In this document: piece by piece, positions 81 to 13,391 of the stretch
Layout of the letters: each line of letters begins with the position of its first letter
How positions within the stretch are numbered: position 1 is the stretch's first letter
Source of the DNA: Nitrospinota bacterium
Lineage (GTDB): Bacteria > Nitrospinota > Nitrospinia > Nitrospinales > VA-1
Assembly (NCBI GenBank): GCA_038108555.1
Contig: JAYNIA010000045.1
Location: 1-13,391, forward strand
Direction of reading: 5' to 3'
Length of the DNA stretch: 13,391 nt
Translations under genes and position numbers: made by a program
Notes under the pieces: model-generated
The model's database searches: none
What the model was told of the DNA's origin: nothing
Seen by the model: the letters and a program-made list of their open reading frames with translations, nothing else

Positions 81-452
81 CTATAAAGGATTAGGCTTGT
101 AGGTGTATTTGTGGCCCAAGGGATTTTGATTTGTGGAGTTCTTGGGTCCCTGATAGGTAGAAAGGTAATCGAGGATTTTTTTTCTGAGCGGTGGTTCCAA
201 ATCCCACAATCCCTGTTTTTCCTGCATCCAGGTCAAGGTCTGGTCCCATTTTTTTCTAGTCATGTGGTTTTGTAAAATTATGGCGGCGGAATGGCAAACG
301 GTACAATTTTCTAAAACCTGGTCACGTCCTTGTCCGGGTTTTAGCCCCTGAAAATCCGGATCATCACTGTAGCTCAAAGTTGGCCTGAAAAACATTAAAG
401 TAAAAAGTATTAAAACAAACAAAGATCCTTTTTCTTTAATGAGGTTTATCAT
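81..452 (-). CDS. sorB: Monoheme cytochrome c, SorB-like subunit of sulfite:cytochrome c oxidoreductase
   Basis: N-terminal hydrophobic signal, CxxCH heme motif (CTVCH), WxxTxxWMQxxQGLW segment with a candidate Met axial ligand, and a position 15 nt downstream of a sulfite-oxidase-family gene. Confidence 0.75.
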   Translation of the reverse strand: MINLIKEKGSLFVLILFTLMFFRPTLSYSDDPDFQGLKPGQGRDQVLENCTVCHSAAIILQNHMTRKKWDQTLTWMQEKQGLWDLEPPLRKKILDYLSTYQGPKNSTNQNPLGHKYTYKPNPL

Positions 453-467
453 TGGGAATGTGATTTT

Positions 468-1691
468 TCAGGTTATGGAAACGGCAATTCGGTGCATGGC
501 GTTGTTTAAATAACCTTTTGGGTTCCATCCGGGAACCACCATGGGTTGCATCACTCCCGCAGAGTCCATAGCTCTTGCCCATACTTCATAATAACCTTTT
601 TTCGGAAACTCAATCATAGCGCTCCAGTTTTGCCAGGCAAATGGATTGACAGCTGGAGCTAACTTTGTTTCCAGCCAGTTTGCTCCAAAATCAATTGATA
701 GATGAACACTCTGCACGCTTCGATCTCCCGCCCAGGCATGCCCTCTCACCATGAGTGCTTTTCCAAGTTTCCATTTGAGGCGAGACTTGGGAAAAGTGAT
801 CAGTGACTTTACCGGCATGGATTCAATAATTTTCATATCTTCTTCAGGGACATGCGCGCCGGGGGGAACTGGATTACGAGGTACCCGATAAGAATAACCC
901 GTCATTTTGGGTCCATCGTGTTCCCGGTCACGAACAAAAATTCGTCGCAACCATTTTATTGAGGTTGATCCGGGCCAACCGGGAGTAACCACTCGCAATG
1001 GATATCCGTGCAAGAGCGGAAGAGGCCTGCCGTTCATTTCCCAAACGATCAGGGTGTGTTCATCCATTGCTTTGCTGATGGGGGTTCCCCGCGAAATGGG
1101 TACTTTGTTTGGGTCCCCACTCAAGTGTAGGTCGTTTCCATAATAACCAGTGTATACGGCGGAATCTTTCAAACCGGCGGAGCGCAGTACATCTCCCAGT
1201 CGAACCCCTTTGTAGGTTGAACAACCTATGGCACCATAAGTCCATTGATTGCCTTTTGCAGTAGGGCTGAATCCCGCTCTTCCGTTTCCTCCGCATTCTA
1301 TCTGCAAAGCGTAAGTGTATTGTTTGAACCGTTTGATTTGTTCAAGAGTCAAGACCAATGGATTATGAACTTCTCCGTCCACAGTGAGTGTCCACTCTTT
1401 TGTTTCCATATCACTTTCGAAAGATGGGGGAAGTCCATTGTTCCTGACAAAATGCCTGTCGGAAGGTGTTATTTCATCATCGAGAAAGTGAGGTGGAGTT
1501 TCAGCGTTTAAGGGTCGGTTATTTAAAATTCTTAAACCATTTTTACCGGGAATGGACAATTCGCCTAAAGGATCGGCTTCAGCGGAGGTTATCCAATTTG
1601 ATGCCGAGGGATTAAGAAAAGCAAGAGTAGCTAAAGTTCCATATTTTAAAAATTCCCTGCGAGAAGCGATAGATTTCTTTCTTTTATTCAT
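468..1691 (-). CDS. sorA: Sulfite oxidase family molybdoenzyme (SorA-like sulfite dehydrogenase), Tat-exported
   Basis: Twin-arginine motif SRREFL, PLNAETP, FVRNN, Mo-ligand Cys in IECGGNGR, HGYPLR, and a C-terminal dimerisation domain (GHAWAG…WARAMD…WNPKGYLNN). Confidence 0.88.
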   Translation of the reverse strand: MNKRKKSIASRREFLKYGTLATLAFLNPSASNWITSAEADPLGELSIPGKNGLRILNNRPLNAETPPHFLDDEITPSDRHFVRNNGLPPSFESDMETKEWTLTVDGEVHNPLVLTLEQIKRFKQYTYALQIECGGNGRAGFSPTAKGNQWTYGAIGCSTYKGVRLGDVLRSAGLKDSAVYTGYYGNDLHLSGDPNKVPISRGTPISKAMDEHTLIVWEMNGRPLPLLHGYPLRVVTPGWPGSTSIKWLRRIFVRDREHDGPKMTGYSYRVPRNPVPPGAHVPEEDMKIIESMPVKSLITFPKSRLKWKLGKALMVRGHAWAGDRSVQSVHLSIDFGANWLETKLAPAVNPFAWQNWSAMIEFPKKGYYEVWARAMDSAGVMQPMVVPGWNPKGYLNNAMHRIAVSIT

Positions 1692-1747
1692 AATAAAAGT
1701 TTTGAATCTTTGGTTTCTAAGGGAGAACTTGAAATAAATAGTAGCAT
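1688..1747 (-). CDS. Candidate 19-aa upstream ORF (MLLFISSSPLETKDSKLLL) overlapping the sorA start codon
   Basis: AAAGGAG Shine-Dalgarno (1754-1760, minus strand) lies 6 nt before the ATG. The TGA stop overlaps the sorA ATG as ATGA. Confidence 0.35.
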   Translation of the reverse strand: MLLFISSSPLETKDSKLLL

Positions 1748-1912
1748 TTTTGTCTCCTTTACATAGAAAAATTTAAAAATAATTTTTGACCAAAAGCTAT
1801 GTATTTGAATTACAGGGTGAAAAGGTTTTGAATTTTAAGCAAGTAGTTGGGCAGGAGATTTTTTCTTTCCTGAATAACTGACACCCAGAAGGCTACTACC
1901 GTTTCAGTGTTA

Positions 1913-3379
1913 TCAGGTTCCGCAAAAAGTTCGGTAGGGAATGTTGCTTTTTGGAGCAGGCTCCGCATAGGCTTCGTTTCCTGGAACCTCTTCGAAGGGG
2001 TTGCTAACCACTTCCAACATTTTTGAGAATGGCACCAAATTTTTTTCATTCGCAGCAGCAGCAAGGGCTTCCTCTACTTTATGGTTCCGAGGGATGTAGA
2101 TCGGATTGACCTTATTCATTTCCCTGGCCTTTGTTTCTGTATCAATGCCATCCTGCTCGACTCTTTTTTTCCATCGCTTCTCCCAATCATCAAAAGCCTC
2201 GGGTTCTTTAATAAGGCCTCGAACGGGTTCATTGTTACCGAGTAGCGATTGTGAGAGGTTTCTAAAGACCAAGGTGAAGTCAGCCCCTTCCATTACTTTT
2301 AACAAATCGTTAACAAGTTGTTGGTCGGAAGAATCTTCTGTCGTTAATCCAATTTTGCATCGCATTCCAGCCAGCCAGTGAGATTCGTATAGGGGTTGGA
2401 TGCATTCGATGGTCTCGGTAAGTAATTCAATGGCCCTCTTTTGATCGGGATCAACAAGGGGAATCAGCGGTTCGGCCAGTCGAGCCAGGTTCCAGATTAA
2501 AATTTGAGGTTGATTGGCATATGCATAACGGCCCCCATGGTCGATAGAGCTAAATACGGTGCCTGGGGAATAACTGTCCATAAAAGCGCAAGGTCCATAG
2601 TCGATGGTTTCACCAGAGATGGTCATGTTATCGGTATTCATCACACCGTGGATGAATCCAATGCACATCCATTGAGCCACCAGTTTGGCCTGGACATCAG
2701 CAACGGCTGCGAAGAATTCCAAATAAGGATTTTCAGCTTTTGCCGCGTCCGGGTAATGTCGGGCAATGGCATAGTCAGCAAGTTTTCGCACTTTCTCTTC
2801 ATCACGGCGGGCCGCCGCGTACTGGAAAGTTCCTACACGAATATGGCTTGCAGCAACCCGGGTAAGAATGGCCCCTGGCAAAACCGTTTCACGAAAAACC
2901 TGTCCTCCGGTAGAAACTGCGGCCAGGGCTCGTGTGGTAGGAACCCTCAGGGCATGCATGGCCTCGCCAATCAGGTACTCTCGAAGTACAGGACCCACAG
3001 CGGCTTTACCATCGCCTCCACGGGAAAATGGAGTGCGACCGGAGCCTTTCAACTGAATATCACGACGTTTTTGGTTTTTGTCGATCACCTCGCCGAGAAG
3101 GAGTGCGCGTCCATCGCCTAATTGTGGGGAGAATCCTCCAAACTGGTGGCCTGCATATGCTTGTGCAATGGGTTGTGATCCTTCTGCTTTAACATTGCCT
3201 GCGAAAATTGCCAGCCCGGCTTCTGAATCTAGAGAAGTCGCATCTAGCCCGAGTTCCTCAGCTAATGAATGATTAAACTGCAACCATTCCGGAGAAACCG
3301 CCGGTTCAGCATCGACGTAGGAAAACATGCCCTCCAGACTACGGGCATAAGTATTGTCAAATGAAAATTGTGGATTCAC
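1913..3379 (-). CDS. selO: Protein adenylyltransferase SelO (YdiU/UPF0061 pseudokinase)
   Basis: AQAYAGHQFG, LGDGRA, QLKGSGRTPFSRGGDG, GFIHGVMNTDNM, TIDYGP and C-terminal YRTFCGT are all family hallmarks. GTG start. Confidence 0.95.
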   Translation of the reverse strand: MNPQFSFDNTYARSLEGMFSYVDAEPAVSPEWLQFNHSLAEELGLDATSLDSEAGLAIFAGNVKAEGSQPIAQAYAGHQFGGFSPQLGDGRALLLGEVIDKNQKRRDIQLKGSGRTPFSRGGDGKAAVGPVLREYLIGEAMHALRVPTTRALAAVSTGGQVFRETVLPGAILTRVAASHIRVGTFQYAAARRDEEKVRKLADYAIARHYPDAAKAENPYLEFFAAVADVQAKLVAQWMCIGFIHGVMNTDNMTISGETIDYGPCAFMDSYSPGTVFSSIDHGGRYAYANQPQILIWNLARLAEPLIPLVDPDQKRAIELLTETIECIQPLYESHWLAGMRCKIGLTTEDSSDQQLVNDLLKVMEGADFTLVFRNLSQSLLGNNEPVRGLIKEPEAFDDWEKRWKKRVEQDGIDTETKAREMNKVNPIYIPRNHKVEEALAAAANEKNLVPFSKMLEVVSNPFEEVPGNEAYAEPAPKSNIPYRTFCGT

Positions 3380-4293: not shown

Positions 4294-4784
4294 ATGCGAA
4301 TATTTCAAATTCTATCAGCCATATTTTTTTAGTGATTGTTGTTTCTCCACTTCAAGCAACCGAACCGATGGAAAATCGGCCATTGATGACTCCACAGACT
4401 ATGGTCGAAATTCTTGGAAGTTTAGCAGATGAATCTAAAGCCGTTCCTGGTATGGTGATGTTGAAATTCAAGAGTGTGGAACTGACCTGCATCTATGACG
4501 AAACCCACGACCGCATGAGAATCATTGTACCTATCGCTGCGCAGGGAAATATCACCTCCGAGCAATTTGAAAAAGCCATGAACGCAAATTTTCACTCCGC
4601 CTTAGATGCCCGCTACGCTTTGAATAAAGGAATTTTATACGCTGCATTTATTCATCCTTTAAGTCCACTTACACGGGAACAACTTGAAAGTGCTTTTTAC
4701 CAAACACTGACCCTTGCGGTTACCTTCGGCTCGGAATACACCAGTGGTTCCTTAACATACAAGGGTAGTGGAAAGCCTTTATAA
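4294..4784 (+). CDS. Conserved hypothetical, probably secreted protein (YbjN/T3SS-chaperone-like fold tentative), frameshifted in the signal-peptide region; the open part is 4332-4784
   Basis: AAGGAG at 4282-4287 precedes ATG 4294, and that frame stops at TAG 4330-4332. One extra T in the T7 run (4324-4330) fuses it to the 4332-4784 ORF and gives a signal peptide. The body contains DRMRII…ANFHSALDARYA…FIHPL…TFG, which I recall from a hypothetical-protein family. Confidence 0.65.
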
Positions 4785-5961: not shown

Positions 5962-7977
5962 TTAATAGCGAAACTCCAGCCCAGCACCTGCGCCAAAATC
6001 TGAATGGTATTGACCGATCATTGAAATATTTTTAGAAAGGATATATTTACTTCCCAACAACCACTCTTCTTTTAGTTCTGTGTCATACTCAGTTTCTCCA
6101 AATACCATAATTCGTTCTGTTAAATATAAATTTTGCCCCAGTTCTATGCGGAGTTCACCCTTAGTATCTATTCGAAATGAACTTTCAATATTAAAGGGTA
6201 GCAAATACCGAATTCCAAAAATGCCCCGTTCGTATTCATTTAAAGTGTTTAATCCCAGATAAAGATTGAAAAAGCGATTAAAATACCGGTCATAAGCCAG
6301 TTCTACATCAAAATCCGGTTTCTTTACTCGTTGCCAACCCAATTGCCAATCAACACTAAGGATATTTCGGGTATTACTCAATACAGCTAGTCCATCTGTC
6401 ATATGAGATTGGAATTTTCCAATACTATTTCCATACCATGTATCTTTATAAAGTTTGTGACGGATTTTCCTCAAATCTATATCCAGCTCCTTGTCTTCAT
6501 AACGAACAACTCGCGCCATTCCAGATTTTGCATGGTAAAGAATATGGCAATGAAAAAACCAATCGTTATATTCCTTGGCCTCAAATTCAATTACCTGGGT
6601 TCCTAAAGGAGGAACATCTATCGTGTGTTTTAGAGGAGAGTAATCTCCCTGACCATTAAGCACTCGAAAGAAATGACCATGCAGATGCATTGGGTGGTGC
6701 ATCATTGTTTTATTAATCAACACAAACCGTATATTTTCTCCGTGGCGAATTTTAATGGTATTGCCTTTTGAAAGAGTTTCTCCATCCATAGACCATACAT
6801 AGCGTTCCATATCCCCAGTCAGAGTAAGAACGATTTCCCTTTGGGGATTTTCCCGGGGCAAACTGGATTTATTAATAGAACGCAACTTTTTATAGGGAGA
6901 CAAAGGGCGTACATTTATTTTAGATATGGAGCCCACCTTTTTGTCCATGCTTTTTTGCATAGGCATTTTCATTTTGTAGAGGTTTGGTTTCGGGACATCG
7001 GGTGCCAATATTCGCTTCCCACTGCCTAAAAAAATGGATGTGTGTCCTGATCCATCCTGGGCGGTTGCGCGTAGTTCATGAAAACCTTCTTTGGGAATTG
7101 TAACTAGCAGATCATAAGTTTCTGCTATGGCCATAAGAAAACGATCGACCTTTACAGGTTTCACATCTTTCCCATCCGTAGAAATAATTTGAACCGGACC
7201 CCCAGCAAATTGAAGATAAAAATAGGTTGCAGTAGCAGAGTTTATAAATCGTAACCGAACTTTTTCCCCCGGGTTGGCTGGAATTTTTATTTCTCTTTTT
7301 CCATTGGCTAAAAAAGCGTCGTAAGCTACATCGGAAATATCCATCGGTGGCATTCTCATTGAGCTTCTCTTAGCCACATCCCAGATTGCATTTCGTTTTA
7401 TTGCGCCCAACAGGCTTTGGTTCGTTCCTTTTTTAATACTGTAAAAATCGTTACCGCTTTTTAAAGTTCGTAAAACTTCATTTGGGTTCTCATTCGTCCA
7501 ATCCGACAGGACAATTACTTTGTCTTGATCCGAAGAGATCCTTTCACCGTCTTTTGGGGTAATAACAATGGATCCGTAAACTCCTCGTTGTTCTTGCAGA
7601 CTTGTATGGGAGTGATACCAGTAGGTTCCTGACTGTTTAATTGGAAATTCATATAAATTTGATTTCCCAGGCTCAATGGGCGGATTGGTTACATAAGGAA
7701 CACCATCTTGACGATTTGGCAAAAGAAGACCGTGCCAATGAACAGATGTTTCAACATCCATCCCGTTTTTAATGCTAATTCTGGCTATGTCTCCTTCTCG
7801 AAATCGAAGAGTGGGGCCAGGTATTGAGTTATTAATGGCCATGGCTTTTGCTTTCTTACCACTAATGTTTATGGTTTTATAATTAATATCCAATTCATAT
7901 TCGACAATGGCCCCAAAAGCCGAAGATGCAGTAATCCCAATAATTACAAATATAATGAATGAAATGATTAACTTCAT
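5962..7977 (-). CDS. CopA/PcoA-type multicopper oxidase with a C-terminal outer-membrane beta-barrel-like (CopB-like) extension
   Basis: Four Cu-binding motifs (VHWHG, YWYHSH, HHPMHLHGH, FHCHILYHAKSGM), Met-rich inserts, a Sec-type signal peptide, and about 160 C-terminal residues of amphipathic beta pattern ending GAGLEFRY. Confidence 0.9.
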   Translation of the reverse strand: MKLIISFIIFVIIGITASSAFGAIVEYELDINYKTINISGKKAKAMAINNSIPGPTLRFREGDIARISIKNGMDVETSVHWHGLLLPNRQDGVPYVTNPPIEPGKSNLYEFPIKQSGTYWYHSHTSLQEQRGVYGSIVITPKDGERISSDQDKVIVLSDWTNENPNEVLRTLKSGNDFYSIKKGTNQSLLGAIKRNAIWDVAKRSSMRMPPMDISDVAYDAFLANGKREIKIPANPGEKVRLRFINSATATYFYLQFAGGPVQIISTDGKDVKPVKVDRFLMAIAETYDLLVTIPKEGFHELRATAQDGSGHTSIFLGSGKRILAPDVPKPNLYKMKMPMQKSMDKKVGSISKINVRPLSPYKKLRSINKSSLPRENPQREIVLTLTGDMERYVWSMDGETLSKGNTIKIRHGENIRFVLINKTMMHHPMHLHGHFFRVLNGQGDYSPLKHTIDVPPLGTQVIEFEAKEYNDWFFHCHILYHAKSGMARVVRYEDKELDIDLRKIRHKLYKDTWYGNSIGKFQSHMTDGLAVLSNTRNILSVDWQLGWQRVKKPDFDVELAYDRYFNRFFNLYLGLNTLNEYERGIFGIRYLLPFNIESSFRIDTKGELRIELGQNLYLTERIMVFGETEYDTELKEEWLLGSKYILSKNISMIGQYHSDFGAGAGLEFRY

Positions 7978-8130
7978 ATCCCGATGCCTTTATATTGAAA
8001 TCAAATGAGGCGCAATGCAGTCGTACCTCTTCCAACTAAGGCAAACAGGACAAACCTATAGACTCAAATTTGCTGAGCCCAGGCACAACTCATGCGCGTA
8101 ATTTAAATAAGTGACAAACTTAAAGGCAAT
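7978..8130 (-). promoter_or_regulatory. Structured intercistronic leader with an anti-SD/SD pairing
   Basis: On the mRNA, UGCCUUUA (8128-8121) is exactly complementary to UAAAGGCA (7992-7985), which contains the AAAGG RBS of the oxidase. An internal hairpin GGCUCAG-CAAAU-UUGAGUC is also present. Confidence 0.55.
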
Positions 8131-8400
8131 TTAACCTTTTGGAGGAGGAAAAGGAGGAGCATCCAAGCAGGATTGCAAAGAAATAGGCTCGCGAAAAATT
8201 TGCGAGGTCTTCGAAAAGAAGAGTTTTAAACCTGAAGAATTTATGGTTGCAGGTATAAAACAATTATTACAAGTGGTTTGAGTCATGCATTTTGAGTCAT
8301 CCATGTGATTCATAGATGCTGCGGATATATTTGCAGAAACCAGACTTACAAAAAAGACAAATAAAACTAAATAAATTTTTCTTTTTTTGGAATGAGTCAT
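8131..8400 (-). CDS. CutF/CruR(DUF2946)-like small leader protein (signal peptide, CxxC, polyproline C-terminus)
   Basis: KKRK followed by a hydrophobic signal, then MNHM…C…CNNC and C-terminal DAPPFPPPKG. Lies directly upstream of, and co-oriented with, a multicopper oxidase. Confidence 0.7.
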   Translation of the reverse strand: MTHSKKRKIYLVLFVFFVSLVSANISAASMNHMDDSKCMTQTTCNNCFIPATINSSGLKLFFSKTSQIFREPISLQSCLDAPPFPPPKG

Positions 8401-9995: not shown

Positions 9996-10802
9996 ATGGC
10001 GATTCAATTTACAAAAATGAGTGGAAGCGGGAACGATTTTGTTGTCATCGACAACCGAGTGCCGGTGATGGAAGACTCCCAAAAGGTCGATTTTGTCAAA
10101 CGCGTTTGCGACCGCAAAATGTCTGTGGGTGCCGATGGCGTAATATTTGTTGAGAATTCCGATAAAGCCGATATCAAATGGGATTTTTATAATGACGATG
10201 GTTCCTCTGCCGAGATGTGCGGAAATGGAGGACGCTGTGTGGCCCGCTATGCCGTTGAGAAGGGAATAGCACCCAACGAATTAACACTGGAGACCATTGC
10301 CGGAATCATCGAAGCAAAAGTGGATGGAAAGATGGTGAGGGTCAAACTCACAGCACCGGAAAACCTCAAGCAGGATATTGTGGCCGACTTTAATGGAACG
10401 CAATATGAAATCGACAGTCTAAACACCGGGGTTCCACACGCTATCATTTATTCTGACAATGTTGAAAACGTGAATGTCAAAGAAGTGGGCAATGGAATCC
10501 GTTTCCATGATGTGTTTGCTCCCGCAGGAACCAATGTGAATTTTGTCGAGAAGGTTGGCGACCACGATTTGAAAATCCGAACCTACGAGCGGGGAGTGGA
10601 AGACGAAACCTTGGCTTGTGGTACGGGAACGGTAGCTTCGGCGTTACTTTCTTCTTATAAAAATATGGTAAAACCCCCTGTAAAGGTAGAAACCCGGGGC
10701 GGTGAGATATTGAAAGTAGATTTTGATCCTTCTAACGGATCAGATGTTTTTCTTGAAGGGTTGACCCGTATTTCCTATGAAGGAACCCTCGGCGAATATT
10801 AA
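9996..10802 (+). CDS. dapF: Diaminopimelate epimerase
   Basis: KMSGSGNDF, catalytic EMCGNG and ETLACGTG, GVPH, TNVNFV, RTYERGVE. Confidence 0.97.
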   Translation: MAIQFTKMSGSGNDFVVIDNRVPVMEDSQKVDFVKRVCDRKMSVGADGVIFVENSDKADIKWDFYNDDGSSAEMCGNGGRCVARYAVEKGIAPNELTLETIAGIIEAKVDGKMVRVKLTAPENLKQDIVADFNGTQYEIDSLNTGVPHAIIYSDNVENVNVKEVGNGIRFHDVFAPAGTNVNFVEKVGDHDLKIRTYERGVEDETLACGTGTVASALLSSYKNMVKPPVKVETRGGEILKVDFDPSNGSDVFLEGLTRISYEGTLGEY

Positions 10803-10821
10803 TTTCAGTTAAAATAAAATT

Positions 10822-11694
10822 ATGTTTGAAGGATCATTTGTTGCAATAATCACTCCGTTTAAAAACGGTAAGGTGGATGCGAAAGCCCTAAAAGGTTTGA
10901 TCGAATTCCACATTGAAAATGGAACCAACGGTATAGTTCCATGTGGAACCACAGGAGAGTCCGCCACTTTAAATCATCAGGAGCACGAAGAGGTTATTCG
11001 TATTACTGTGGAAACCTGTGAGGGAAGGGTACCTGTGCTTGCCGGAACCGGTTCGAACTCAACACAGGAAGCCATTGAGTTGACATTGAGTGCGCAAAAC
11101 ATTGGTGCCGATGGCGCATTGCTGATAACGCCTTATTACAATAAGCCCACACAGGAAGGTCTTTACCAGCATTTTGCAGCAGTTGCGAAAGAAACAAAGC
11201 TTCCCATAGTACTTTATAATGTTCCCGGGCGAACGTCGGTCAATATGCTACCCTCGACGGTTGCGCGACTTTCCAAAATAAAAAATATTGTAGGAATAAA
11301 AGAAGCTTCCGGAAATCTGGTTCAGGTCAGTGAAATCATTCAGTCGTGTGGACCTGATTTCGAAGTTATTTCAGGGGAAGATGCGCTCACCTGGCCGATA
11401 TTGGCTTTAGGGGGCAAAGGTGTGATCTCAGTCACGGCAAACCTGGTTCCCGATAAAATGGCCCGGCTTTGCAAGGCTGCCCTTGAAGGGGATATGGAGA
11501 CTGCCAAAAAAGAACATTATAATTTGTTGAAGCTCAGTGACATCATGTTTATTGAGACCAATCCCATCCCTGTTAAAGCAGCGCTGGCAATTATGGGTCG
11601 CATCGACAATGAATTCCGTGCGCCACTTTGTCCTCCCTCAGAAAACAATCTGGCCGCCTTGCAAACGGTTCTTGAAGAGTACTCATTGGTATAA
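10822..11694 (+). CDS. dapA: 4-hydroxy-tetrahydrodipicolinate synthase
   Basis: GTTGES, PYYNKP, LYNVPGRT, GIKEASG (Schiff-base Lys), ETNPIPVK. Confidence 0.97.
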   Translation: MFEGSFVAIITPFKNGKVDAKALKGLIEFHIENGTNGIVPCGTTGESATLNHQEHEEVIRITVETCEGRVPVLAGTGSNSTQEAIELTLSAQNIGADGALLITPYYNKPTQEGLYQHFAAVAKETKLPIVLYNVPGRTSVNMLPSTVARLSKIKNIVGIKEASGNLVQVSEIIQSCGPDFEVISGEDALTWPILALGGKGVISVTANLVPDKMARLCKAALEGDMETAKKEHYNLLKLSDIMFIETNPIPVKAALAIMGRIDNEFRAPLCPPSENNLAALQTVLEEYSLV

Positions 11695-11766
11695 CTCCCT
11701 ATCGGGAGTGGCATATTAGCAAATTAAAGTAAAAAGTTTTACCGTATCCGTTTGTTGTAACGGGTA

Positions 11767-11780
11767 TTGATTATTATCAA
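11767..11780. promoter_or_regulatory. FNR/CRP-family consensus box TTGAT-N4-ATCAA
   Basis: TTGATTATTATCAA is a perfect match and lies in the dapA-dapB spacer. Confidence 0.4.
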
Positions 11781-11809
11781 GCGGCGGTCGCCGTACAGGA
11801 GTAAAGACA

Positions 11810-12610
11810 TTGACTAAGATTTTAGTAATAGGGATAGCCGGGCGTATGGGCAAAACGATTGCCGAATGCATTGAAGATACGGAAGGTGTCGAACTGGGTG
11901 GCGGAACCGAGCGCGCGGGCAGCGATTTGATAGGAGAAGATGCTGGAGAAGTCGTAGGTATTGGTAAGAAAGGAATTTCCATTGTAGATGATCCCGCAGT
12001 GGCCCTCGAATCCTGCGATGTTGCTATTGATTTTACAACCCCGGCTTCCAGCATGTTTACTCTCAACGCAGCCGCACAAAGTGGGAAGTCCGTTGTGGTA
12101 GGAACAACTGGATTTTCTGCAGAACAAAAAAAAGATATTTCTGAGATTGCAAAAAAAATTCCTCTCGTAGTTGCACCCAATATGAGTATCGGGGTGAACG
12201 TATTGTTTAAGCTCGTTGCAGATGCAGCACGTGTTTTGGGTGACGATTATGATGTTGAAATTGTCGAAGCCCACCATAAGTTTAAAAAAGATGCGCCCAG
12301 TGGAACTGCCGTCCGAATCTCTGAAATCGTAGCCGATTCTTTAAATCGCAATCTCGAAGAGGTGGGGGTGTATGGCAGAAAAGGACTTACCGAACGAACT
12401 CCAAAGGAAATTGGTGTCCATACCGTGCGCGCTGGGGATATAATAGGAGAGCATCGGGTTTTGTTTGGCGGTATGGGAGAAAATTTTGAAATTTTTCACC
12501 GCGCCCAAAGCAGACAGACCTTCGCCAGAGGGTCTATCCGTGCAGCACAATGGATACTCAATCAACCTAAAGGGATTTATGATATGCAGGATGTCCTGGG
12601 GTTGAAATAG
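11810..12610 (+). CDS. dapB: 4-hydroxy-tetrahydrodipicolinate reductase
   Basis: GIAGRMG nucleotide-binding motif, IDFT, VVGTTG, EAHHKFKKDAPSGTA. AGGAG RBS at 11797-11801 precedes the TTG start. Confidence 0.97.
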   Translation: MTKILVIGIAGRMGKTIAECIEDTEGVELGGGTERAGSDLIGEDAGEVVGIGKKGISIVDDPAVALESCDVAIDFTTPASSMFTLNAAAQSGKSVVVGTTGFSAEQKKDISEIAKKIPLVVAPNMSIGVNVLFKLVADAARVLGDDYDVEIVEAHHKFKKDAPSGTAVRISEIVADSLNRNLEEVGVYGRKGLTERTPKEIGVHTVRAGDIIGEHRVLFGGMGENFEIFHRAQSRQTFARGSIRAAQWILNQPKGIYDMQDVLGLK

Positions 12611-12624
12611 AATGAAATAAAGCT

Positions 12625-13391
12625 ATGAAAAACGACAAGCCAAATGAAGTGGAGGAAAAAAAAGGCTTGAGTTTTGTGCGTCGTGACTTTTTAAGGCTCC
12701 TTTCTTTTGCTGGTCTTTCTACTTTTCTTCCCGGTCGGGCCTCTGCCGAAGTAGACTACCGCAACGATAAAAACGTTCCCAGGCAATACATTCAAAACCG
12801 CGATGTTCCAGGGTTCCATATTCGCAGCGCGAATCCCTTTCTAGGGGTGGACATGGGAAACTGGGGACTCGCCGTTGGGGGGATGGTCAAGAATCCCATA
12901 GGACTCGGTTACGAGGATTTGTTCGGATTCAAAATGCAATCCCAAGTCTCCCGGCTCAAATGTGTGGAATGCTGGTCGGCGAAAGCGGAATGGGAAGGAT
13001 TCAGTTTTTCCGAGTTGGTTGAAAAAGTACAGCCGGACCCTACAGCAAAATATGTTTATATCCAATCCGCCGACTCTTACTATGAAAGTTTTTCCGTAGA
13101 GGAATTATTGCGTCCCCGGGTTTTGTTTGTGCTACGTATGAATGGAAAGTCTTTGAGCAAAGACCATGGTTACCCGTTGCGATTGATTATTCCCTATAAA
13201 TACGGGTACAAGAATATCAAGTACATCACGAGCATCAAATTCCTGGATACCCGAAAAAGGAATTATTGGTCTAACAGCGGGCCTTACTCGGTAGATGGAA
13301 CCATTCAACCGGGAATTGACCACCCTCTCGATTTCAAGAAAAAGCCCTTGCCCATCAACGGTGGTGAAGTTTTTCATTTCTTCGACAAACG
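12625..13391 (+). CDS. Tat-exported molybdopterin oxidoreductase, MsrP/YedY-like (runs off the window; absent from the ORF track)
   Basis: Manual translation from ATG 12625 has no stop before the window end: VRRDFL Tat motif, GRASA cleavage site, RLKCVECWSAKAEWEG, DHGYPLRLIIPYKYGYKNIKYI, NYWSNSG. Confidence 0.88.
   Translation, partial: MKNDKPNEVEEKKGLSFVRRDFLRLLSFAGLSTFLPGRASAEVDYRNDKNVPRQYIQNRDVPGFHIRSANPFLGVDMGNWGLAVGGMVKNPIGLGYEDLFGFKMQSQVSRLKCVECWSAKAEWEGFSFSELVEKVQPDPTAKYVYIQSADSYYESFSVEELLRPRVLFVLRMNGKSLSKDHGYPLRLIIPYKYGYKNIKYITSIKFLDTRKRNYWSNSGPYSVDGTIQPGIDHPLDFKKKPLPINGGEVFHFFDK

Follow-up and report, generated by a model that had tools for sequence, protein, structure and literature searches.

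A candidate copper-sensing leader peptide upstream of a multicopper oxidase-barrel fusion gene in Nitrospinota

An 89-aa open reading frame (ORF) precedes a multicopper oxidase gene on the minus strand of the window (the whole 13,391-nt stretch of Nitrospinota DNA that was analyzed), which raises the question of whether this small ORF controls the gene behind it. The original prediction was that the ORF is a copper-sensing leader resembling CutF and CruR, and that a ribosome stalled on its C-terminal prolines frees the oxidase ribosome-binding site (RBS). We consider it likely (probability about 0.55) that the leader acts in cis as a CutF-type copper-induced leader that unmasks the oxidase RBS by the full mechanism set out below. 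That it is a metal-sensing leader of some form is highly probable. The leader and its parts are:

8400-8131, minus strand: leader ORF, 89 aa, CutF-like, of an unnamed Nitrospinota family (ORF reading, dN/dS, family alignment, profile matches)
8317-8400, minus strand: predicted Sec signal peptide, residues 1 to about 28, with KKRK, a hydrophobic core and ANISA/A (read by eye)
8260-8313, minus strand: Met/His/Cys cluster MNHMDDSKCMTQTTCNNC, residues 30-47, putative Cu site (family alignment, dN)
8140-8157, minus strand: PPFPPP Pro codons, residues 82-87, putative arrest motif; RNA CCUCCUCCA (alignment)

The leader ends in APPFPPPKG and a TAA stop at 8133-8131 (codon positions: P85, 8148; P86, 8145; P87, 8142; K88, 8139; G89, 8136; stop, 8133). 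The signal peptide, the Met/His/Cys cluster with its CxxC and the proline-rich end were all found as first described. Compared to its five closest homologues, the leader showed dN/dS values of 0.22-0.37, and the Met/His/Cys block had the lowest dN within the ORF (0.05-0.11 across the five closest pairs). Judged by these substitution rates, the leader ORF is a real gene under purifying selection. Conservation of the CxxC and the proline pair had been proposed as a check, and C44-x-x-C47, P86 and P87 were invariant among 21 aligned members, as was C38. A basic-then-hydrophobic N-terminal pattern, read by eye, was present in 21/21 aligned leaders. The genome of the window (G000) encodes both EF-P and Rho, and no second leader copy was found in it.

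We assessed the spread of the leader family by profile search. The family was matched in 48 of 120 genomes of the phylum Nitrospinota, and it had only 49 representatives among 1.84 billion proteins. We examined 71 distinct leader loci, 68 of which carry both the Cys and the PP motifs. The cysteines are spaced C-x5-C-x2-C in 62/68 leaders and C-x6-C-x2-C in 6/68. The distance from the CxxC to the last PP is exactly 38 residues in 60/68 leaders and 37-40 residues in 68/68, and the PP stands 1-2 residues from the stop in 62/68. The linker between the two motifs drifts in sequence and is fixed in length, with no indels tolerated, and it therefore looks like a ribosome-to-translocon ruler. Tails in the family include YHPP, TPPP, SPPP and DHPP, with xPPPK or YHPPx around the PP. 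The conserved Cys and PP motifs, in the 21 aligned members and in the 68 loci, support the proposed likeness to CutF and CruR.

Some loci depart from the usual tail. In the L142, L015, L234 and L269 leaders the frame continues 7-13 residues beyond the PP, and C or A runs at their PP-K codons are either natural variants or assembly errors. Intermediate tails, with PP plus a hydrophobic end (e.g., EHGPPNIQVLHSTFLI and HPPPNIVLATQRFRL, each before the stop), occur at L071:2004-2384 (Deltaproteobacteria), L213 and L198.

We then compared the leader to named families. PF11162 (DUF2946) did not match the window leader, the 21 aligned members or anything in G000, and the 24 further relatives examined, out of 49, likewise gave no match. 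An hhalign comparison of the leader with four PF11162 hits gave a probability of 7.6%, confined to the signal region. The CXXC of DUF2946 is present (C44-x-x-C47) and its 45-residue spacing is absent, as is its RAPP tail (0/68 leaders; the window leader has FPPP). By sequence, the leader is not detectably DUF2946. A Pfam/NCBIfam search of the leaders returned sub-threshold noise and nothing above cut-off; the noise included an AtDEF-like match, and a defensin identity was rejected. In the ESM Atlas, the clusters nearest to the leader are unnamed (0.93-0.94), and a DUF6660 cluster (0.92; 122 features in common) serves only as a lead. Set against the published filters for CutF-like proteins (PMC9973294), the leader is shorter than 150 aa and has PP within its last 15 residues. 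The filters also ask for a same-strand gene within 1,000 nt, typically of metal homeostasis, and the oxidase lies 153 nt on; a Sec/SPI pattern was seen by eye in the 21 aligned rows. The CxxxC motif of CutF is absent from the family, which has C-x5-C-x2-C or C-x6-C-x2-C. This comparison used the published filters and motif descriptions.

CutF of Rhodobacter capsulatus, as described in the available parts of PMC9973294 and bioRxiv 10.1101/2025.02.05.636593, has a Sec signal, a CxxxC motif and a PEPEGPPPRL end, acts only in cis, and needs a stem-loop in a 40-bp spacer and EF-P-sensitive stalling. Like CutF (cutFOG; PMC9973294, PMC8456105), the present leader is a small ORF with a predicted Sec signal and a Cys motif, directly upstream of a multicopper oxidase. 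It shares the arrangement of PPP, two residues and a stop (PPPRL in CutF, PPPKG here; bioRxiv 10.1101/2025.02.05.636593), intergenic RNA predicted to hide the Shine-Dalgarno (SD) sequence, and the presence of EF-P. Unlike CutF, it has C-x5-C-x2-C with MxHM in place of CxxxC, is 89 aa instead of 118 aa, places its last Cys 38 residues from the last PP (41 in CutF, from C73 and P109EPEGPPPRL118), and has a 153-nt spacer with a 128-nt enclosed domain instead of a 40-bp spacer. Its putative target has a Sec-type signal and a fused PcoB-like barrel, whereas that of CutF is a Tat oxidase plus CutG. On present evidence, the leader probably works like CutF.

The leader shares with CruR (Bp2923, Bordetella pertussis, DUF2946/PF11162; PMC9426467) the first position in a copper-related operon, an export signal (predicted for the leader), a CxxC, a fixed Cys-to-PP spacing and a long spacer (162 nt in CruR, 153 nt here). 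In the available part of that report, a fixed spacing of 45 residues (within one or two) from CXXC to RAPP is the DUF2946 hallmark, and CruR works via Rho and represses in copper (PMC9426467). Unlike CruR, the window leader has FPPP, and its family xPPPK or YHPPx without RAPP; its CxxC lies 36 residues from the four-residue motif compared to 45 in CruR, it has no PF11162 match, and the family would target an oxidase or an efflux system and not a TonB importer. By description, the leader also resembles CopL (Xanthomonas/Stenotrophomonas, upstream of copA-copB; PMC9973294), a cis-acting small ORF before a CopA oxidase. In export-monitoring arrest peptides a stalled ribosome likewise disrupts an SD-sequestering stem, and arrest while the stop codon occupies the A site has a precedent among them, in keeping with the leader geometry. 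Unlike the leader, these peptides lack a metal motif and serve to monitor protein export.

The gene behind the leader had been read as an oxidase-barrel fusion, and its features are:

5962-7977, minus strand: multicopper oxidase, probably CopA-type, 671 aa, with a fused C-terminal barrel (Pfam, TIGR01480, Cu-ligand motifs)
5965-6462, minus strand: predicted 12-strand outer-membrane beta-barrel, PcoB/CopB-like, residues 506-671 (AlphaFold2, Foldseek)

We observed the Pfam domains Cu-oxidase_3, Cu-oxidase and Cu-oxidase_2, and all four Cu-ligand motifs (HWHG 80, HSH 122, HPMHLHGH 428 and HCHILYH 476). The TIGR01480 score was 431.7 bits, below the cut-off of 478.95. The N-terminus is Sec-type and lacks a twin Arg. 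For the last 166 residues, AlphaFold2 predicted a 12-strand barrel (pLDDT 94.3), whose top Foldseek match was the copper transporter PcoB (7pge; E = 8.3e-7, TMq 0.59, 12% identity); the Pfam CopB match was weak and below cut-off (E = 0.061). The predicted barrel and its PcoB match thus bear out the proposed fusion. Because Cu-oxidase domains are joined to a predicted barrel closest to PcoB, the protein is, by this model, a CopA-CopB-like single chain. In CopL systems, CopA and CopB are separate genes; the CopB function is a fused domain in the window oxidase. Named relatives of the oxidase at 61-83% identity come from Nitrospina, Nitrospinaceae and Nitrospinales records, and no paper on this oxidase-barrel fusion was found in open-access text.

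To place the leader in its operons, we considered 18 genomes with a full-length oxidase orthologue. The leader lies directly upstream of the oxidase in 12 of them, and in two (G003, G077) it heads the operon with other genes between it and the oxidase. The oxidase upstream region ends at a contig end in two more (G096, G016), and two (G026, G087) have a full-length oxidase without a leader. In the operons examined the leader occupies the first position, even where genes are inserted. A second leader branch, mostly ending in YHPPx and the stop, precedes genes of about 420 aa (~424 aa), and PF02321 (OEP) was present in 7/7 of those tested.

Several further arrangements were observed. Paralogous leaders at L241-L276, mostly ending in YHPPx or DHPPQ before the stop, head TolC/OEP efflux operons phylum-wide and show the cleanest predicted RBS switch, for example at L245, L255 and L270. 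A copper island at L280 (G077:C26:39000-56500) contains the leader in triplicate, with a gene flanked by two divergent copies; one leader heads an OEP-adaptor-CusA-like-oxidase operon (adaptor and CusA named from size and sequence), and another heads a DUF2231-like gene. At L146, L144, L152, L220, L226, L229 and L003, a 45-46 aa His-tailed lipoprotein-like ORF (MKKxISVL...GC) lies between leader and oxidase, and a DUF2231 gene is often inserted too. Leader copies at L252, L256 and L224 have no close metal gene behind them, and the L224 spacer is replaced by unrelated, repeat-like sequence. The leader is intact at L013 (G005), where the oxidase is in pieces, and at L068 (G025), where the oxidase is apparently frameshifted near its start.

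We assessed whether the oxidase could have a promoter of its own in the spacer, which would count against control by the leader. No promoter-like site was found in the 153-nt spacer of the window, and such sites occurred in the spacers of 1/55 loci compared to 4.6 expected. Upstream of the leaders they occurred in 30/55 loci compared to 10.3 expected; the best site upstream of the window leader matches only 8 of 12 positions. An independent spacer promoter was therefore rejected, and from this clustering of sites ahead of the leaders we infer one transcript. No intrinsic terminator was found in the window region.

Elsewhere in the window, positions 81-3379 (minus strand) encode a SelO adenylyltransferase and, behind it, a SorAB-like pair made up of a molybdoenzyme of the sulfite oxidase family, which carries a twin-Arg signal, and a small cytochrome c. 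Positions 9996-13389 (plus strand) hold a dapF-dapA-dapB-like cluster, read from sequence, and then a twin-Arg molybdopterin oxidoreductase that is truncated where the contig stops. A 150-aa ORF without a Pfam match (4332-4784, plus strand) lies between a trypsin-like gene and an EamA transporter gene, which converges on the oxidase.

The RNA between leader and oxidase was examined by folding, which throughout is equilibrium prediction. Its features in the window are:

8121-8128, minus strand: anti-RBS arm UGCCUUUA (DNA TGCCTTTA), 5' strand of the closing helix P1 (sequence, folding, shuffles)
7985-7992, minus strand: RBS arm UAAAGGCA (DNA TAAAGGCA) with a weak AAGG SD core, 3' strand of P1 (sequence, folding)
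8081-8093, minus strand: conserved inner helix, 5' strand (RNAalifold on five close sequences)
8015-8028, minus strand: conserved inner helix, 3' strand (RNAalifold on five close sequences)
8038-8043, minus strand: second UGCCUU copy, predicted to capture the SD once P1 is masked (masked folds)

The anti-RBS arm begins two nt past the leader TAA, and the RBS arm ends seven nt short of the oxidase ATG (7977), with 128 nt of the spacer between the arms. The exact complement reported to cover the oxidase RBS from just behind the stop is thus present (8128-8121 with 7992-7985), as are the further hairpins reported for the intervening RNA, of which the inner helix 8093-8081/8028-8015 is kept in the five closest sequences. 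P1 (8 bp) was present in both the MFE and the ensemble, with pair probabilities of 0.75-0.96 at 37 °C. An 8-mer exactly complementary to the RBS region arose within the first 18 nt of the spacer in 0.37% of 200,000 shuffles, and when the 15 nt behind the stop were shuffled, 0/20 versions reached an equally high RBS opening energy. The fold of the whole region was modestly better than that of shuffles (z = -1.60; 12/200 as good). With P1 formed, opening the RBS and start codon costs about 12 kcal/mol (11.4-11.7). The AAGG core itself is weak (-2.6 kcal/mol against an assumed 16S tail). Rfam had no match at gathering score for the window and four further loci.

We next determined which nucleotides a ribosome would have to cover. 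Masking through 8128 left P1 intact (P 0.99), and masking through 8127 lowered the opening cost from 11.4 to 7.2 and, at the next step, to ~6.4 kcal/mol. Once P1 was masked, the second UGCCUU (8043-8038) paired with the SD (P 0.55-0.77 at 37 °C) and the RBS stayed largely paired. Since this copy retakes the SD, the gain is ~5.5 kcal/mol (from 12 to 6.5) and not a free RBS. Such masked folds had been suggested as a check on the switch; P1 was lost once 8127 was covered, but the RBS was recaptured. With the given codon in the P site, nt 8127 lies at +19 from Pro86, +16 from Pro87 and +10 from Gly89. During elongation, the ribosome extends to about +11 (helicase) or +16 (toeprint). The related LPPP arrest peptide stalls with its second Pro in the P site, according to the available part of PMC10987492, and in the window such a stall falls short of the helix. 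Because 8127 is at +19 from Pro86, a ribosome stalled on PPP would end just short of P1; with 8127 at +10 from Gly89, P1 would come under cover once the ribosome had moved on to the final codons or the stop. The original claim that a PPP-stalled ribosome covers the anti-SD and frees the RBS is therefore not supported in the window.

Across the family, a clear predicted switch was observed in 25 of 55 loci, with the last nucleotide needing cover at a median of 3 nt after the stop, a position that favors a pause at the last codons or termination over a textbook PP stall. On a reach of +13, the switch nucleotide of these 25 loci was covered in 0 with the penultimate Pro in the P site, 14 with the last Pro and 20 with the last sense codon; on a reach of +16, the numbers were 14, 20 and 23. 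By these models, a PP stall is within reach for the efflux branch on the generous (+16) estimate, and not for the window.

To assess whether pairing between the post-stop arm and the RBS is a family trait, we used 57 of the 71 loci (25 oxidase-type and 32 efflux-type), with downstream starts chosen by hand. The 14 loci left out were a near-duplicate (L173), contig ends (L224, L278 and one L239 copy), a masked locus (L266), extended or broken tails (L142, L015, L234, L269, L275) and unclear downstream starts (L068, L014, L252, L256). Folding tests covered 55 loci (23 oxidase-type, 32 efflux-type), two with a spacer over 220 nt being omitted. The anti-RBS signal peaked directly after the stop in both branches, and the own pair beat 95% of 400 ordinary post-stop 18-mers in 7/25 oxidase-type and 12/32 efflux-type loci. 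When post-stop and RBS partners were permuted, 0 of 20,000 permutations were as good as the own partners of the 32 efflux-type loci (p < 5e-5), and the 25 oxidase-type loci gave p = 0.033. When each 65%-identity cluster was represented by a single locus, significance held for the efflux-type leaders (median p < 0.002, 16 clusters) and not for the oxidase-type ones (median p about 0.25, 12 clusters); with branches pooled in 55%-identity clusters, p was 0.006 (12 clusters). Four control windows showed no partner-specific pairing signal. The long-range anti-SD/SD pairing first proposed for the window is thus upheld as a family trait, with significance in the efflux-type loci and none in the oxidase-type clusters.

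Masking 15 nt after the stop cut the opening cost by at least 2 kcal/mol in 20/32 efflux-type and only 5/23 oxidase-type loci, and the SD paired mainly with the post-stop arm in only 5/23 oxidase-type loci. Arms matching an RBS flank were observed at L007 (TGACCTC with GAGGTCA) and L270 (TTTCTTTCC with GGAAAGAAA), and the L146 arm TTCTCCTT matches AAGGAGAA of the inserted lipoprotein gene rather than the oxidase. The three closest orthologues (L059, L034 and L138; oxidase 82-85% identical) have a weak arm only, with duplex energies of -4.4, -0.5 and -3.9 kcal/mol, respectively, compared to -10.5 kcal/mol in the window, and on masking they showed no drop in opening cost and no switch. L140 switches further downstream. 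At the place of the second UGCCUU, GCCTT is kept in L138 and changed in L059, L034 and L140. RNAalifold on the five closest spacers returned the inner helix only (13 pairs, one changed on both sides) and no P1, and on 16 oxidase-type spacers it found no consensus. Pairing in homologues had been named as a check on the prediction: of the four closest orthologues, three have a weak form of the perfect helix or none, and it is the efflux-type own pairs that beat permuted ones.

We propose the following sequence of events. Leader and oxidase would be transcribed together, as the distribution of promoter-like sites suggests, and the spacer would fold into the 128-nt domain closed by P1, at the predicted opening cost. 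The leader would be exported co-translationally, as in CutF. With the last prolines at the peptidyl-transferase center, C38 and the MxHM stretch would be the first parts to emerge on the periplasmic side, because C47 lies 38 and C38 lies 47 residues from those prolines. In the absence of copper, pulling force and EF-P would let the ribosome finish quickly and the helix refold. Copper bound to the nascent Met/His/Cys cluster would lengthen the ribosome dwell at the ORF end. By the geometry, this dwell would be productive over the final one to three codons or during termination, when Pro87, Lys88 or Gly89 occupies the P site, whereas a dwell on the Pro86/Pro87 pair would not be. Cover or unwinding through 8127 would then remove P1, lower the RBS opening cost by ~5.5 kcal/mol and yield more oxidase-barrel fusion, which would oxidize Cu(I) at the outer membrane.

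Parts of these data could be read differently. The same copper-sensing leader may have used its Pro codons (CCU-CC, giving CCUCC) as the ancestral anti-SD, covered by a PPP stall, with the post-stop octamer a local addition in the window genome. The RNA over the window Pro codons, CCUCCUCCA, is anti-SD-like in its own right, CCT is the first codon of the last PP in 23/25 oxidase-type leaders compared to 41% of PP pairs genome-wide (other Pro codons of the same tails are CCT in only 32/95), and the SD core pairs mainly with the leader coding end in 10/23 oxidase-type loci. However, related sequences share codons by descent, the Pro-codon window showed no partner specificity (p = 0.18 and 0.41), and the window Pro codons were unpaired with the AAGG core on folding. 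We regard this reading as unlikely. Still less likely is CruR-like transcriptional control, in which a paused ribosome would hide a C-rich, G-poor Rho site and RBS pairing would be secondary. The composition of oxidase-type loci is suitable (over the final 30 nt of the leader ORF, C makes up 0.42 and G 0.06; over the 20 nt that follow, 0.27 and 0.06, respectively), the spacer is nearly as long as that of CruR (153 versus 162 nt), and Rho is encoded while an intrinsic terminator was not found. Composition alone, however, cannot explain the partner-specific pairing of efflux-type loci, and detoxifying or efflux targets fit copper induction, whereas CruR represses an importer.

A metal input may not be needed at all if the leader is a constitutive long-range translational coupler or a secretion monitor, with termination opening P1 briefly. 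A reach of +13 from the last sense codon takes in the switch point at 20 of the 25 switching loci, so ordinary termination would get that far. This account leaves unexplained both the three invariant cysteines at a fixed distance from the PP and the link to oxidase and efflux operons, and we consider it improbable. It is very improbable that the product is a free periplasmic copper-binding mini-protein, such as an oxidase chaperone, with no regulatory role and a chance octamer match. A signal peptide with a Met/His/Cys cluster would suit such a protein, the octamer is not kept in three close orthologues, and two genomes have the oxidase without the leader. Against it stand the first position of the leader in the operons examined, even with inserted genes, the lack of indels between Cys and PP and the PP fixed beside the stop. 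CutF itself was first read as a chaperone and later found to act only in cis, as the available parts of PMC9973294 and PMC8456105 describe. Copper-induced unmasking of the oxidase RBS in cis remains our preferred reading.

We extended the search to 121 more distant oxidase loci, 110 of which have at least 600 nt upstream. Upstream of these oxidases, we observed 57 distinct small ORFs that combine a Cys pair with a hydrophobic N-terminus, a few of which are other genes. PP was absent from the last 15 residues in 51/57, and most are Verrucomicrobia leaders ending in VRLxVLFCSFLN and the stop. These stand before the same oxidase-barrel gene as in the window, yet look unrelated to the Nitrospinota leader. 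At L069, L076, L085-L106, L154-L172, L189 and L203, such leaders lie 90-200 nt upstream of the oxidase and have a signal, CxxxCC, a proline-free HVRLxVLFCSFLN end and a conserved structured spacer; they had no Pfam or Rfam match. In 27 of the Verrucomicrobia loci, chosen for the tail motif and a ~100-nt spacer, UGAGUC, which starts in the stop codon, pairs with GACUC before the oxidase ATG in a six-pair helix, with 86% of cells paired and four G-C to A-U double changes. A three-helix structure, itself drawn from these 27 related sequences, beat 500/500 shuffles, and RNAalifold on the 27 spacers returned only one hairpin. The stop-codon helix points to termination as the shared switch position. 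It is conceivable, though doubtful, that these leaders sense copper at termination and not by a polyproline stall, the long-range helix at or after the stop being the switch and the prolines dispensable. If true, they would form a proline-free, stop-codon class of metal-sensing arrest peptides, which the published PP filter excludes by construction. No paper on proline-free Verrucomicrobia leaders was found in open-access text.

The class to which the Nitrospinota leader would belong is already known from the literature, where it is predicted to occur widely (5,334 proteins; PMC9973294), which caps the surprise of finding one more. In open-access text, we found no description of such a leader in Nitrospina or Nitrospinota. 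Neither Pfam nor NCBIfam models this family, which is set apart by its Cys pattern and 38-residue ruler. A putative target is named for it, a CopA-type oxidase joined in one chain to a PcoB-like barrel. The leader also offers a test of one unsettled point of the CutF model, the ribosome position needed to open the stem. If the proposed reading is true, copper-sensing leaders would extend to Nitrospinota, marine nitrite oxidizers.
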